The notes: generated by a model not told the origin, from the sequence alone. Shown: positions 3,361-62,175, counted from the first letter of the whole stretch. The stretch is DNA of 62,175 bases, filler included, from Asterionella formosa (GCA_002256025.1; 20 parts of 20 records of this genome joined end to end with filler, not necessarily neighbours in it), one strand, 5' to 3'. Numbers and translations: made by a program.

Positions 3361-4297
3361 CATCAGAGTTGACTCATTTGAATCGTTTGACTCCAAGTCA
3401 TAACTACATAGATGAACTCACTTTACAATATGGTACATTACCTGTAACCTGGTACTCCCTCTGTCCAATAACAGTTGCATCGATAATTCAAATTTATCTG
3501 GGGCCATTTTCTTGACTCCTACGATTTTCTCCAGCTCAATTTCCCTATTGTGTGGCTTGCTCTAAGCTACAGAATAATGTTTATTTTATATATAGAAAGA
3601 TTAAAATTGGCAACTACGTTTGAAAAAATAGTTTTTGGGATTTTTTGATTTTCACTATGGCTATCTCGAGCAAAATGCAGATGCATGAGGACCCATTTTT
3701 CTTAAAACCATCTATTCTTAACATATGTACAAAGTACAATGTAAAAGTAGAACGACGGCAACTTGCGTTCAATTATGGAATGTGCAATCCCAAAAGTGGT
3801 GATGATAGGAAAAAAGAAAACAATGGTATGAAGGTTTTGAGGATTGTAACCGTTAAACATCCGGTGGCATGGTCCATGTTGGTGCAACAATCGTAGAAAG
3901 TATACAGAATGAAAATTATTCTATTCATGCTATATTTATGATAGTGGCTTGTTGCATTTGGTTTCCCGCAAATATTTGACTGGCCGGCTGATGTGAAACA
4001 GCAGTTGGCGATTTATACATATATATGCAATGAATCTGCGTATGTTAACCTGCTTGGTTTAGATTAATTCATTTATATGCTAATAATTTAATTAAAGAAA
4101 CCGAGTTTATGTTCACGTCTATGTAACTCATAAATAACGTATTTTTTCGAGTAAGCCGACCCTCACGTAAAAAATTGGTATGTTGGCTACATAATCCTTC
4201 ATATGCGAACAGTAAAAACAATGGTGGCGCCGGCGAATCGATGCAACTGTTACTGGAGTACCAGGTACCAGGTGTATATTAAGGGCAACTCACCATG

Positions 4298-4455
4298 AAG
4301 TACTAGGCGATAGAATACGAAAATGATCACGTGACTACGACAAATAGCGGTGCAAATGATGCTTTTGCTTTTCCTGTTACTATCACTCCAGCATGCAATA
4401 GGCGATAAAATACGAAAATGATCATGTGACTACGACAAATACCTGTGCAAATACT
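4298..4455 (-). repeat. Dispersed repeat module (x2) also found inside the Tourist-like MITE
   Basis: aggc(g/a)atagaatacgaaaatgatcacgtgactac occurs twice here, twice at 37457-37630 and twice (reverse) at 43870-44040. Confidence 0.85.
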
Positions 4456-6359
4456 TTACCAGGAGGTACTTCTGCATCCACATGCTGATATAGTGGGTAG
4501 TACATCAACTGGTACATACATAGGAGCAATGGCTTTGAGCCAGCCACTTCGGCCATTTTTGTCATTTTTAAAATAGATAGATCTCAGTAAATATACATTC
4601 AAGTAAAAAATGATTCAATTCTCATGTAGCTTAATGAACTAACTAATTATCGTGCCAAAGGGCGAAAGTGGGGATCGATTTTAGTATAATTCTAGAATTA
4701 GTCGAAAAACGATATAATAACGTAGCTCAAGCCATTTATGAGTGGAACTTTGTCCAGTAGAACTGAACTGATGATAAATCATGCCATTAAAATAATTATG
4801 ATTGAAGAAAAATAATACCGGTATTCGAAATAGGGAGATTTAAAATAGAGGGACACATCAGTGAATTTGTCTGCCAATGTAAACTATTGGAGCTAAAGTC
4901 GCTCTCATCAAGATGTTTGAATCAAGTGAAAAGGAGAGGGACAAGTACCTGGTACCAGTGCATCTTGTTTCATGGTGTCTTTGTAGTAGTAGCTAGTAGC
5001 CCCCATACAAAGATTTACATCATTGTACTACCATATAGTGACATATTCATCTGCTTGCTTGCATTAAAAATGAAACTGGTTGGCATTTCCCATGGAAATG
5101 ATGCCACCAGAATTAATGACGAGCCATTCTTGCCGAGATTGTTGATGGATTTTTATAGGAAGAATTTGAATCTTGTTCTTTATTGCAACACGAAGGACGC
5201 TGCTGAAAAAAATTTTATTCTGACATTCAACATGGAGAATTAATGCATTATAACAAAGCCTCACTTGTAATGTGACATTGTGAATTCTGACTGAATAGTT
5301 AACTTGGCAATATTCCTTGAAATCTCAATAGGTCAACATACTTGTTTGAAATGTATTGGTACTGCAATTGGTGACTGGGTTGGTAGCATAGCTGAATCCC
5401 TTGAAATATCTATACAAAAGTGCTACCAGAATCAAAAGGCTTGTTGTTAGTAAGTGGCGTTGCTTGCTTCCCTGCATTCATATATTATGTATATATGTAT
5501 GTATACATTTTTGTTCCTGTTGTGTGCAAGAAGAAAATAAAGAGCAAAGAATTTTTTTCTTCATGTCCATTCTAATCCAACCAATATCTTATTTCTACTT
5601 CAATGTCTAGCACAACAAGCCAATATCCATTTTAAACTTTCATTTCAACTTTGACATTGTTATGCTTACTTTCATTGTCAATGTTCTTGACGTCCTTATT
5701 TGTTTTAATGTTGTGGTGGTGTTGTTGTTGATGTATAAATCACTGATTATCAAAGAAAGGAAGGAACATCAATATCACAATGGCTTAACCCTAACACACT
5801 AACAAAATTAATTGAAACAAAATCATGACCCTGAATGATACTTTGATACACACGGTGCTAAGGAGCCTATTTCATTCAACATGTGTAATTGATGTAAATT
5901 CGCCTGATAGTATGGTTTGCCAATGGCAACTGTGTGTTTACTGTTTTTTGGAAACACAGCAGCAAGACTGCTCTTCACGAGGTCTGTAGGTCTGTTTGCT
6001 CATTGTTTTAGTCACCTCGAGCTCGTACCACAACACAACCTGAGGATAGAGGACAAAGCACCTGGAGAGAGCCAAATAGGCACTGAAACCAGCAGAGACT
6101 TCACTGTGCGCAGCAAAGAAAGCTGTTGAAACAAAACCAAAGATCNNNNNNNNNNNNNNNNNNNNNNNNNNNNNNNNNNNNNNNNNNNNTTAATTAATTA
6201 ANNNNNNNNNNNNNNNNNNNNNNNNNNNNNNNNNNNNNNNNNNNNGACCATGAAGAAAACATCATTTCATCCATCAGTTCTCGCAATCAAACAAAATACA
6301 TGCATTAAACAACTGTCATTCATCATACCCAGGAGTAACACAAGAGGGCAACCGTGCTG

Positions 6360-59171: not shown

Positions 59172-59960
59172 TATGGTTACTTGTCACCAGATAGTGAATA
59201 CAAGCAATAGGAGTTGGAAACTCTTTTTGCTCCACAACAACCATAGCTACGGGCTTGAACTTCTTCTCCAAGTTCTCCCTCTCTTCAATGGTAATGACAA
59301 AGTTGCCATGAAGCTTCTTCTGGAGCTGATTTGCGTATAGAGCTTGGTTGGTAACAACTGAATTCCAATCGTTACCAAAAGATTTTGACAAGAAAGTCAT
59401 AATCTCATTGATCTCCAAAGGTATTTTAGAGGGGGCGAAGGTGTCAAGGGGAATTTGGGTGATCCTAACTTTCCACTTGTACTGCCTATCATCAGCATTA
59501 GGGTCACGTACATTGATGCGACCAATGTACAATATTCCTATAGCCTCAAGACTTTTGCTCACATGAGTGAAAAAAGCAAGAAAATAGAGCAGTGGATAAT
59601 CCACATGAGTCCTGTATCCCTCGCGGATCAGACTCATAGACTCTGGACTGAAGGGGACCAACCAATAGCGTTGAGGGAGAAAGGACTCACATTCTCATAC
59701 GCGTTGATCAATCGAAGATAGAGTTTCTTCATGGACAATTCAGGATCTCTCTGGAAATCCTTGAACATGCCAATCTCAAGTTACTTGTCCATACTGTCAC
59801 AAGTACTCTTAAACTGGTCAGTAGTGAAAGGAACACTGAAATTCGTCTTGATGTGGTAGTGAGGATACACAGTATCATCATCACCATACTGAGCCCTGTG
59901 ACCCTCGAAAGGACAGAAACCATCGCACATCTTGGCTGGTCTGTTCATGAGCGAGAAAGA
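59172..59960 (-). pseudogene. Unidentified frameshifted coding sequence, divergent from the 60409 ORF chain
   Basis: Overlapping protein-like ORFs 59781..60113 and 59172..59661; no recognisable motif. Confidence 0.3.
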
Positions 59961-60408
59961 AGTCTCGAAGGGAGAAAGGAAAGAGAGAAGAGGAGAGTAA
60001 CGCAATTGTTGCGAAAAAGTGCAATTATTAGAGAAATATAGAGTCACGTGAGGATGGCTGGCAGTTTTTCTGTTCCAACAAACAGGCAGGAAGCCAGTAG
60101 TAGCTAGTTGCAATGTTTTTGTGTCCGAATCCTACCTGCATCTAGTCCCTACTAGATAAATAGTACAAGACAAATACTCGGATGTACTATATACAATACC
60201 TTGTCCTTGTTTGTGCGTATAATTTCCCTGAATCGCTGCTAGTAGCTACTAGTAGCTAGCAAGTACTTTTACTGTCGCGCCATTCAGTAACTGTTGAATT
60301 TTGAAGGTGATGATGCTTGATTATTATTAGTGTAGCAGACTACCGGTAGACCGGTAGACCAGCAACAATGGCCATTTGCAAAGGGAAAATGTCCACTTTT
60401 GCGAATAA

Positions 60409-62175
60409 ATGCGTGATCAATCAGTGATTGTTCGAGATCCAATTCCTATAAATCTCTGGCAAGCTATTTCGGATATCATGTCAAAACATATTCAGGAGCT
60501 GTCTCAGGCTGAGGCTTCCTCTGCATCCGACAGTGAAAGCGACAATGGAGTCTCTATTCCTGGAGCAGAGAACAGCGATTTCTTCAGTGACGAGGATGAA
60601 AGTCTCATTTCATCAACTGATGGTAAGAAAAACATTTCGACTATTTCTGATCACAAGGGAATTGAAAAAACCTTTCCTTAGAGTTTCTTCAATCTGAGTT
60701 GAAGAAAAGTAGAAAAGAGATTGAAGAGCTTCGGGAAGTAACGGAGAAGCAAAGACTTCAACTTTCTGGTGGCCATGGCATTGGAAGAGACAAGCATTGG
60801 ACCCGGAATGTTGGTCAATGGGTCAAACTTGAACTTTTCCCAAAAGTCAAGTTTATCACAGGTGATATTGAACTTGATGAAAGGGGACCAACTAGTCTGG
60901 CACTCTCATTTCGTGCTCACTTCCCAAGTCTATTCATGGGAACCGATAAGGACTTCGAGTCAATTTGGCAGACATATAAGAATGATATTAATAAAGTGAT
61001 GTCTGAGAAAAGAAATGCCGTTGTTACCACTCTCAAACATGCCTTTGCCAGTAAGTAAACAACTTGACTTGGTGGTATGCCTGATTTGTTCTTGACTTGG
61101 TTAACATACTCATTGTTTACTACTTACAAAACATTCGATTCCAATCTACAAAACTTCAGGACTTTTTCGTGATGGTATGCACATTCATCTGAATAAGCAT
61201 ACCATCTCCAACAGCCGTTCTGTTTCTATTCAGGAGACAGGTGATGGAGAAGGAACCAAGAATCATCCTTTCTTCCTTCTAGTTGAGTACTTTTATTCCA
61301 GGGTTGGGCGAAAGCTGTCTTGGAAACGACAGTGTGCTAAGAAGCATGTCAGTGACATTGTTAGTGTTTCTGACGAGGTTTTTTCATTGTTGGTCTTGGA
61401 GAATTGTTGGGATGTCTGGTTGCATAAGGCAATGATGAAAGGTCATGAAGATGATACTCCTGCACCAAAATACGTTTATACCGGTACTGGAGGACAGGGA
61501 AAGAGATATGGTGGCTGGGACGCAAAGGGATATGCCAGGTTCAACAGCCTGTATGACATAGTTGTTCATCAAAGGACAACTGCCATGAGCAGGCAGTTGG
61601 AGATCAGTTTTAAGTCCAATCTTCTTGTTTTGGCTGGAGTTCCACAAGGTTAGTCACTTCGGGGAAGTGAACAAAGTGGAATTGTTGAAATGATGTTCAT
61701 TGAAAATATTGACTAACTGATGGAAATTTTCATTGAAGTTACGCCAGGGAACAACAGTGTGCCTGCCATTAGAGTTCGGAATGATCTAGTGGCCATTTCT
61801 CTTCCAGTAAGCACAACTCCGGCATCTTCCATCAGTGGATTGACTCCACAAGTTATTTCAGGAAGAACTTCAAGGATAACAACTGGTAGTACTAAGAGTG
61901 CTAAGAGTTCAAAGAGTACAAAGAGTTTGAACGTGATTATTCACTTTCCCCCAGACCAAGTCAAGGGTGCCACAGATTGGTACTTCCAAGAGATGAAGAA
62001 AAAGATGTATGTGGAGCTTCGGATGAAGAAAAAGAGTGAAATTTATAGGGCTTGTATTGATCAGAACATTGCACCCCCAGACCTTTTTGGAGATGAAATT
62101 AAAGAAGGGATGATGAATGACGAGAGCTACATTAAAAAGTTCGAGGAGGTTGCAGCAAAGGGCGAGAAGAAATAC
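60409..62175 (+). pseudogene. Degenerate spliced ORF of a probably transposon-associated family
   Basis: ORF chain with stops; intron-like gtaagt (61051)..ttcag. Motif SVSDEVFSLLVLENCW...GWDAKGYARFNSL resembles the SDEAF..L.LEN / GW..EG..RFN proteins I associate with DNA-transposon accessory ORFs (recall, not a search). Confidence 0.4.

Follow-up and report, generated by a model that had tools for sequence, protein, structure and literature searches.

Abundant TA-bounded palindromes in Asterionella formosa as candidate excision scars of Tc1/mariner-type transposons

What could write the same short palindrome, again and again, into unrelated parts of a diatom genome? The question is raised by a 62,175-base stretch of Asterionella formosa DNA (termed the window hereafter), which is composed of 20 separate contigs of 3004-3023 bp (c1 to c20) ordered by length and joined by N44-TTAATTAATTAA-N44. 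The 8-mer TACCGGTA and the 9-mer TACCWGGTA (W is A or T) recur throughout much of this DNA, and a preliminary description of it had proposed that such words are footprints left behind by excised transposons. The evidence presented here shows that the motif arises by insertion at a single TA dinucleotide, that motif units are delimited by TAs which adjoining units share, and that miniature inverted-repeat transposable elements (MITEs) that duplicate TA are present. We consider it moderately probable that the motifs are excision scars of TA-targeting cut-and-paste elements of the Tc1/mariner type. From this we infer that a transposon with CC(W)GG ends was once present at each site, and that the scale of the pattern reflects many excisions accompanied by loss of the elements.

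In the shuffle tests, expected counts were obtained from 100 dinucleotide-preserving shuffles of the window. The sequence TACCGGTA has 24 exact matches where 0.24 are expected, and TACCWGGTA has 11 where 0.26 are expected, with no shuffle reaching either number. Taken with a few close variants, TACCGGTA is about 50 to 100 times commoner than chance. The preliminary description had reported at least 23 and at least 11 sites, respectively, with fewer than one of each expected; all 23 and all 11 of its coordinates are correct, and one further TACCGGTA site is found at 4816. The full set is distributed as follows.

4259-61486, no strand: all 24 TACCGGTA and 11 TACCWGGTA sites, located by exact matching

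At least one motif is carried by 12 of the 20 unrelated contigs, and the flanks of the 24 TACCGGTA sites have no conserved base outside the 8-mer. The density of TACCGGTA is about 0.4 per kb, or one site per 2.5 kb, and the motif words rank at the top of all 8-9-mers by over-representation, after homopolymer runs of G or C.

This excess is highly specific. Among 118 CCGG sites, 24 have TA on both flanks, and the next most frequent flank pair accounts for five. When the 16 words of the form TA-xy-rc(xy)-TA (where rc is the reverse complement) are compared, enrichment is restricted to TACCGGTA (24 versus 0.48 expected, about 50-fold), TACTAGTA (6 versus 0.67, about 9-fold) and TAGTACTA (5 versus 0.67, about 7-fold). 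Because just three of the 16 words are enriched, a general excess of palindromes can be ruled out as the cause. For words with a central unpaired base, TA-xy-N-rc(xy)-TA, the sole enriched example is TACCNGGTA (12 versus 0.67). Sequences that differ from TACCGGTA by one mismatch occupy 23 sites versus 9.9 expected, but this surplus is confined to the central variants TACCWGTA/TACWGGTA, a class missing from the preliminary description that has 14 sites versus 2.8 expected (0 of 100 shuffles). Changes at the four outer positions yield 7 sites versus about 4.5, which is close to background, and the motif is therefore sharp. Other words previously listed as similarly common are a mixed group: TACTAGTA (6 versus 0.52) and TAGCTA (24 versus 8.7) are indeed enriched, with 0 of 100 shuffles reaching either count, but TACWGTA is enriched weakly (12 versus 6.1, with 3 of 100 shuffles reaching 12).

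The core prediction of the preliminary description was that each motif is an insertion of 6-7 bp at a single ancestral TA. This can be tested where a motif resides in sequence that has paralogues, and the available comparators are mostly retrotransposon copies. We used paralogous copies between contigs, database protein homologues, and two close Copia copies (L001 and L002) from a metagenome scan that returned three loci. Of the four TACCGGTA sites that could be tested, three prove to be insertions when set against paralogous copies, as had been predicted, and one of these is firmly polarised.

18899-18906, in ORF 18727-21741 on the minus strand: TACCGGTA in the reverse transcriptase (RT) open reading frame (ORF) of a Copia element, an in-frame 6-bp insertion at TA established with DNA and protein comparators

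The Copia ORF of contig 7 spans 1005 codons, and its RVT_2 domain (residues 762-977) holds site 18899. L001 and L002 are 98.4% and 96.7% identical in nucleotide sequence to this copy. Where contig 7 reads GTGGAGTACCGGTATATG, both loci read GTGGA------GTATATG, which is exactly six bases fewer, and a more distant copy in c12 has the identical gap. In the protein, the insertion adds Tyr-Arg. Homologues could be aligned over the site in 39 of 51 cases compared (c12 plus 50 from databases), and none of the 39 carries two extra residues: 37 are two residues shorter over this stretch, one is shorter by one residue and one by eight. The nearest homologues, P0124 (98.6%) and c12 (72%), have their gap precisely at Tyr-Arg. 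The absence of the motif from L001, L002, c12 and the 39 homologues, amounting to two DNA and 39 protein comparators that polarise the change, argues firmly that site 18899 is a derived, recent and in-frame insertion that converted TA to TA-CCGG-TA. Small indels among the contig 7, L001 and L002 copies have a related character, as two of the three are TA-bounded (including a change from TA to TACTA in L001) and the third is a duplication of CAA. A search of six Copia clusters for the in-frame signature of such scars (YR/RY, PV or TG) found it in none of 19 distinct small indels, of which two are two residues long, a sample too small to be informative. No further Copia DNA was found in viral contigs.

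The Copia copies differ in other respects as well. An in-frame deletion of 633 bp has cost the contig 7 copy (18727-21741) most of the integrase region that L001 and L002 still have; in L002, about 1 kb is missing at the RT/RNase H end. Copia protein clusters P0216-P0227, P0231 and P0234 are 25-39% identical to the window copy and include Fragilaria crotonensis proteins that automatic annotation has named as something unrelated ('PIF1-like helicase' or 'disease resistance protein', for example); these entries look like mis-named retrotransposon fragments.

Two further insertions are located in the long terminal repeat (LTR) of the contig 9 Copia element.

27579-27595, no strand: 17-bp insertion TATTCTTACCGGTACTG at the start of the LTR, containing TACCGGTA site 27585, found by LTR comparison
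27905-27912, no strand: TACCAGTA, a 6-bp insertion of CCAGTA at TA, found by LTR alignment

The longer insertion can be parsed as TA-TTCT-TA-CCGG-TA-CTG-TA and sits between AATA and TAGG in c9. The closest LTR, that of c12 (about 82% identity), lacks it and reads AATA|TAGC, and those of L001 and L002, also without it, read AATAT|TAGC. At the second position, c9 reads TACTA[CCAGTA]GTAG, c12 reads TACTAGTGG and L002 reads TACTAGGTAG.

A family of repeats with copies in c2, c13 and c15 provides the remaining comparison.

4259-4457, plus strand: copy in c2, with the repeat edge TA-CCAGG-TA followed by CCAGGTGTATATTAAGGG..., identified by homology to c13 and c15
37411-37867, plus strand: second copy, in c13, with the edge array GGTACCTGGTACCCTGGTACCTGGT, identified by contig-versus-contig homology
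43629-44092, minus strand: third copy, in c15, which is 94.6% identical to that of c13 and has a different edge array
37532-37550, no strand: chain CAC-TA-C-TA-CCGG-TA-CATTC in the c13 copy, found by pairwise alignment and not in c2
43946-43961, no strand: counterpart of this chain in the c15 copy, in reverse orientation, found by comparison of the copies

Sites 37538 and 43951 represent one position in the two copies at 94.6% identity. The third and more distant copy, in c2, lacks the 16-19-bp stretch TA-C-TA-CCGG-TA-CATTC-TA found there, in a comparison made without an outgroup. MAFFT places the gap elsewhere, yet the length difference is again 22 nucleotides. In the two-copy comparison, sites 37708 and 43781 occur in both copies. 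Overall, the pairwise alignments of repeats and LTRs contain 53 gaps, many of them in poorly aligned stretches on which no claim is built.

These comparisons also bear on the age of the motifs. The scarcity of decayed outer variants, together with an event in a Copia copy that has a 98%-identical relative, suggests that many scars are young, and the two sites common to copies 5% apart show that some are older.

If the motifs are inserted at TA and each supplies a new TA, adjoining motifs might be expected to share this dinucleotide. The preliminary description had stated that the motifs chain in this manner, and adjoining motifs share a TA three times (15396/15403, 27312/27319 and 40966/40973). 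Random placement would yield 0.02-0.08 such pairs, and none of 20000 simulations reached three. The chains take the following forms.

27307-27345, no strand: micro-array TA-CCA-TA-CCTGG-TA-CCTGG-TA-CCAGGG-TA-CCAG-TA-CCGG, upstream of a CP12-like gene
15396-15414, no strand: chain TA-CCAGG-TA-CCGG-TA-GC-TA, read from the sequence
40966-40986, no strand: chain TA-CCTGG-TA-CCAGG-TA-CTG-TA, read from the sequence
34649-34668, no strand: chain TA-CTGCCGG-TA-C-TA-CCGG-TA, which includes one of four TACCGGTA sites in 34392-34711
60341-60360, no strand: TACCGGTAGACCGGTAGACC, in which an 8-bp tandem copy follows the motif, read from the sequence

Different TA-bounded words also form chains, namely TAGCTACTAGTAGCTA and TACTAGTACTAGTA, at 60243-60258 and 35557-35570.

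Chains and repeat copies could alternatively signify that the motif words are parts of a dispersed repeat, or heptamer microsatellites that grow by slippage. Three of the 11 TACCWGGTA sites (4259, 37413 and 44064) do lie at the edge of the c2/c13/c15 family, the pairs 37538/43951 and 37708/43781 are mutual copies, and short tandem copies of units are present in a few places, namely the arrays 60341-60360 and 34649-34668. However, the flanks of the 24 TACCGGTA sites have no base in common, and an all-against-all BLAST of the contigs connects just the c2/c13/c15 sites. Isolated single 8-mers cannot be produced by slippage, and neighbouring units within chains vary in length (for example, CCAGG beside CCGG), so slippage alone is insufficient. 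This explanation is very unlikely to hold for the set as a whole and would explain no more than a minority of sites.

Excision of Tc1/mariner-type elements would generate such sequences by a simple route. Insertion of an element duplicates the target TA. Upon excision, a staggered cut would leave 1-3 terminal bases of the element on each flank, and end-joining would then seal these leftover bases between the two TAs. For an element with ends CC(A/T)...(A/T)GG, a product retaining two bases from each end would be TA-CC+GG-TA, which is TACCGGTA (24 sites). Retention of three bases at one end and two at the other (3+2 or 2+3) would give TA-CCW+GG-TA or TA-CC+WGG-TA, corresponding to TACCWGGTA (11 sites), and the 3+1 or 1+3 products TA-CCW+G-TA and TA-C+WGG-TA would correspond to TACCWGTA/TACWGGTA (14 sites). 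To explain the missing full 3+3 product, either a base would usually be trimmed or the stagger would mostly be two bases long. Every scar would create a new TA, such that repeated visits could build chains. Moreover, a 6-bp scar would remain in frame and be nearly neutral, and a resident element would not; scars could therefore build up while the elements are purged. The survival of the six-base insertion in the RT ORF fits this expectation.

The architecture of this proposed product has clear precedents. Footprints of Tc1/mariner elements likewise consist of a duplicated TA around 1-3 terminal bases per end, are palindromic or nearly so, and vary in length by end-joining. The Sleeping Beauty transposon leaves TAC(A/T)GTA, and Mos1 is likewise a footprint-leaving element. 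In Caenorhabditis elegans, the Tc1 footprint is TA-CA/TG-TA (Eide and Anderson 1988, as cited in PMC3520976). In contrast, the known footprints are described as rare and can be tied to a named element, whereas those of the window occur about once per 2.5 kb, are chained, and have a parent that is out of view. The proposed mechanism is that of a known Tc1/mariner footprint, and what is unusual is its scale, its chaining, and the absence of a parent from 60 kb.

If transposons produced these sequences, related elements might still be recognizable nearby. TA-flanked inverted-repeat elements were sought within each contig, with any ends and, separately, with CC...GG ends. In the search with any ends, just two MITEs exceed chance, both with CT...AG ends; matches with 3-4 mismatches are by estimate at about chance level.

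3455-4258, no strand: 804-bp MITE with ends CTCCCTCTGTCC...CTGGAG, flanked by a duplicated TA (3453-3454 and 4259-4260) and containing the inner inverted repeat ACAGTTGCATCGAT
38081-38187, no strand: 107-bp MITE with perfect 16-nucleotide inverted ends CTTTGTCTATGACAAG and TA on either side, from the inverted-repeat search

The ends of the larger MITE are presumably Stowaway-like. This element sits in the central TA of CCTGG-TA-CCAGG, within a motif array. Both this arrangement and the TA-sharing chains support the earlier suggestion that every footprint makes a fresh TA target. In addition, CT...AG ends would be predicted to leave the 2+2 scar TACTAGTA, a word that is enriched about tenfold by the shuffle test.

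A candidate for one end of the parent element itself is the edge of the c2/c13/c15 repeat family. All three copies start with CCWGGT, at 4268, 37429 and 44070, directly after a TACCWGG array, and mariner inverted repeats typically start with YYAGGT. The family has a subterminal direct repeat of about 60 bp, two per copy (for example, 37454-37516 and 37571-37630 in c13, and 4300-4357 and 4399-4452 in c2), which contains the G-box-like palindrome TCACGTGA, itself enriched (14 versus 1.6 over both strands). The opposite end is outside view, and we regard this repeat edge as an unproven lead.

Several observations weigh against excision as the source of the motifs. In none of the 20 contigs did the search recover an element that has CC(W)...(W)GG inverted ends and is flanked by TA. 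No Tc1/mariner transposase domain was detected in the 72 of 112 ORFs of at least 90 amino acids and the 119 of 191 ORFs of 60-89 amino acids that were scanned, these being the ORFs neither nested in nor antisense to longer ones. The only transposase- or integrase-type domains in the scanned ORFs are of PIF/Harbinger and Copia origin, plus a retroviral-type integrase zinc-binding domain, and ORF 39128-40420, beside the candidate repeat, has no Pfam match and no transposase features. The full 3+3 product TACCATGGTA has no site in the window. Chain units such as TTCT and CATTC, and the enriched TAGCTA, are unexplained by CC...GG ends, and TAGCTA matches no element end seen in the window. At site 61479, the motif codons occur in all four of the covering homologues (86-100% identity); this site is uninformative, since the motif is present in every comparator and no presence/absence difference can be seen. 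To reach a density of about 0.4 TACCGGTA per kb, excisions would have to be very numerous. Our literature search found no precedent for excision at such density, and we know of none. Finally, the TACCGGTA core is identical to that of upstream motif-9 of Phytophthora (PMC3520976) and of a Plasmopara motif (PMC10031896). The footprint interpretation of the preliminary description thus stands with regard to insertion at a single TA, at three of four testable sites, and chaining through shared TAs, but the element with CC termini that it had suggested seeking is not found within the contigs of the window, no Tc1/mariner transposase appears among the scanned ORFs, and site 61479 is invariant.

The ORF that holds site 61479 (61105-61650) has no Pfam match. 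It is a member of a multicopy family in which a single 90% cluster comprises 70 sequences, and in one homologue this stretch is read in a shifted frame.

The missing parent raises the alternative that CCGG or CCWGG is placed between duplicated TAs by some other TA-specific insertion process, one in which no resident element is excised. Transposon ends might, for instance, integrate abortively or at one end only and then be repaired, or a domesticated transposase or nuclease might be at work. In keeping with this possibility, insertion at TA is evident from the data but no allele with an element in place was seen, no parent element is seen in the window, and the density of sites is very high. 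Against it, the spectrum of variants (2+2, 3+2 and 3+1) fits ordinary excision with end-joining, as do the co-occurring scars of another end type (TACTAGTA, alongside CT...AG MITEs), and to our knowledge no such process has been described. We therefore judge a non-excision origin distinctly unlikely.

The locations of the motifs relative to genes are relevant to a different alternative. None of the 35 sites lies in a host gene supported by Pfam, which accords with the earlier claim that the motifs avoid intact host coding sequences. Two are in ORFs backed by Pfam or homologues (18899 in the Copia RT and 61479 in the multicopy ORF), and 10 more are in ORFs of at least 110 amino acids that have no Pfam match. 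Many sites are located 100-500 bp upstream of ORFs, including 40966/40973 (a GGACT-domain gene), 42653 (a MAPEG gene) and 27312 (the CP12-like gene), although gene models of the window are poor for judging positional preference. Such placement would be expected if TACCGGTA were recognized as a palindromic cis-regulatory site by a homodimeric transcription factor conserved in stramenopiles, with its abundance resulting from selection in promoters. Selection could also yield a sharp 8-mer.

The oomycete literature makes this binding-site explanation worth careful consideration. Motif-9 of Phytophthora is an inverted repeat upstream of 1,284 genes, is enriched 3-fold at RXLR genes (Seidl et al. 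2012, PMC3520976), and correlates with expression during infection (PMC3520976). Its core is printed as GTACCGGTA / ATACCGGTAT for Plasmopara, where streme-5 is ATACCGGTAT (PMC10031896). A second Phytophthora sequence, motif-1 or TACATGTA, occurs upstream of 12,070 genes (PMC3520976), and for this one the authors considered a Tc1 footprint but did not adopt the idea, in view of abundance and conservation (PMC3520976). Like the words in the window, the oomycete motifs are TA-bounded inverted-repeat octamers that are abundant in stramenopile intergenic DNA, and the core of motif-9 equals TACCGGTA. However, they have been read as sites for homodimeric factors, and the passages of PMC3520976 that concern them report no indel test. 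The sequence TACATGTA is not enriched in the window (1 site versus 1.9 expected).

Regulatory selection leaves several features unexplained, among them the clean 6-bp TA insertion in the RT ORF, the LTR insertions and the TA-sharing chains of 3-7-bp units, and the sites are not restricted to promoters. A degenerate binding site would also predict enriched near-matches, whereas the outer-position variants of TACCGGTA number 7 versus about 4.5 expected. Moreover, the text of a protein-binding-array study of P. infestans factors (PMC11267843), figure logos aside, has no ACCGGT string. As the sole origin of the motifs, transcription factor binding therefore appears unlikely. Nevertheless, the two explanations are compatible, as it is possible that scars have been co-opted as binding sites.

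Other genomes offer partial parallels. The internal eliminated sequences of Paramecium have TA boundaries and are of Tc1/mariner-type descent. TA boundaries are also what they have in common with the sequences described here, but these Paramecium sequences undergo precise, programmed excision in the somatic nucleus that leaves one TA, whereas the diatom DNA, which is presumably germline, keeps extra bases. The HIP1 sequence of cyanobacteria (PMC4390886) is an 8-bp palindrome that is, like TACCGGTA, hugely over-represented genome-wide. Unlike TACCGGTA, it is prokaryotic, linked to methyltransferases and located within genes, with neither TA duplication nor an origin by insertion. Our full-text literature search recovered no report of such motifs in diatoms and no paper that links ACCGGTA to transposon footprints.

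Sequence motifs this frequent might also have been introduced artificially, during library construction or assembly. The assembly is fragmented and the contigs taken from it are short, and one of them, c4, starts with a perfect 127-bp inverted repeat (9368-9494 / 10007-10133), adjoining a Copia ORF, that may be either an assembly fold-back or a genuine palindrome. Yet an artefact is extremely improbable as an explanation for the motifs, given that the motif keeps a 1005-codon ORF open and is common to two diverged repeat copies. Furthermore, the independently assembled locus L002 has five motif words in a 282-bp flank of host DNA (two TACCGGTA, one TACCAGGTA and two TACWGTA), and the Copia bodies of L001 and L002, each about 4.5 kb, have none of these words. 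Among 24 listed sequencing runs, eight hold at least half of the sampled contig 19 words, a result that is silent on the motif positions themselves.

The remaining content of the window is that of a diatom genome. Its GC fraction is about 0.36-0.49, and it has long ORFs with few introns that encode, among others, Copia polyproteins and proteins with ankyrin/mTERF, DOT1, GT61, GGACT, MAPEG, CP12 and HECT domains. The best named relatives of the DOT1 ORF (51661-52830, minus strand) are all diatoms, at 48-57% identity (Amphora, Phaeodactylum, Nitzschia, Mayamaea, Seminavis and Thalassiosira), and a protein identical to it occurs in three public sources. A PIF/Harbinger-type element is present in two copies (1412-2984 and 44624-45851), with DDE_Tnp_4 matches at 2343-2984 and 45507-45752; a segment of about 590 bp in contig 15 (44976-45566) is missing from the contig 1 copy. 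Contig 10 terminates in nine TTAGGG repeats (31030-31083) directly after an ORF with LRR repeats (30434-31030) and is likely to represent a chromosome end. Long homopolymers occur at 46579-46628 (G runs of 21, 10 and 10) and 28096-28106 (11 C), and GGGGGGGG is the top over-represented 8-mer of the window.

If the motifs are excision scars, then a family of cut-and-paste transposons would have visited, and subsequently left, about every second kilobase of non-coding DNA in this diatom, which would imply very high transposition, efficient end-joining and strong purging of resident copies. The scars would constitute a dated and countable record of past transposition. They would also supply proteins with two-codon in-frame insertions, as in the Copia RT, and the fresh target created by each scar would be a simple route to short palindromic arrays. 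More broadly, searches for promoter motifs in stramenopiles may be detecting transposon scars, and the oomycete motif with the same core, published as a binding site, would be open to re-testing by indel analysis. A tentative and rather doubtful extension of this reasoning is that mariner-type scars are, across the stramenopiles, the main source of abundant TA-bounded palindromic 'promoter motifs', including TACATGTA and TACCGGTA of Phytophthora. Under this extension, transposon traffic through open intergenic DNA would keep writing short palindromes, some of which would later be co-opted by dimeric factors, and the scars would record past transposition across the genome.

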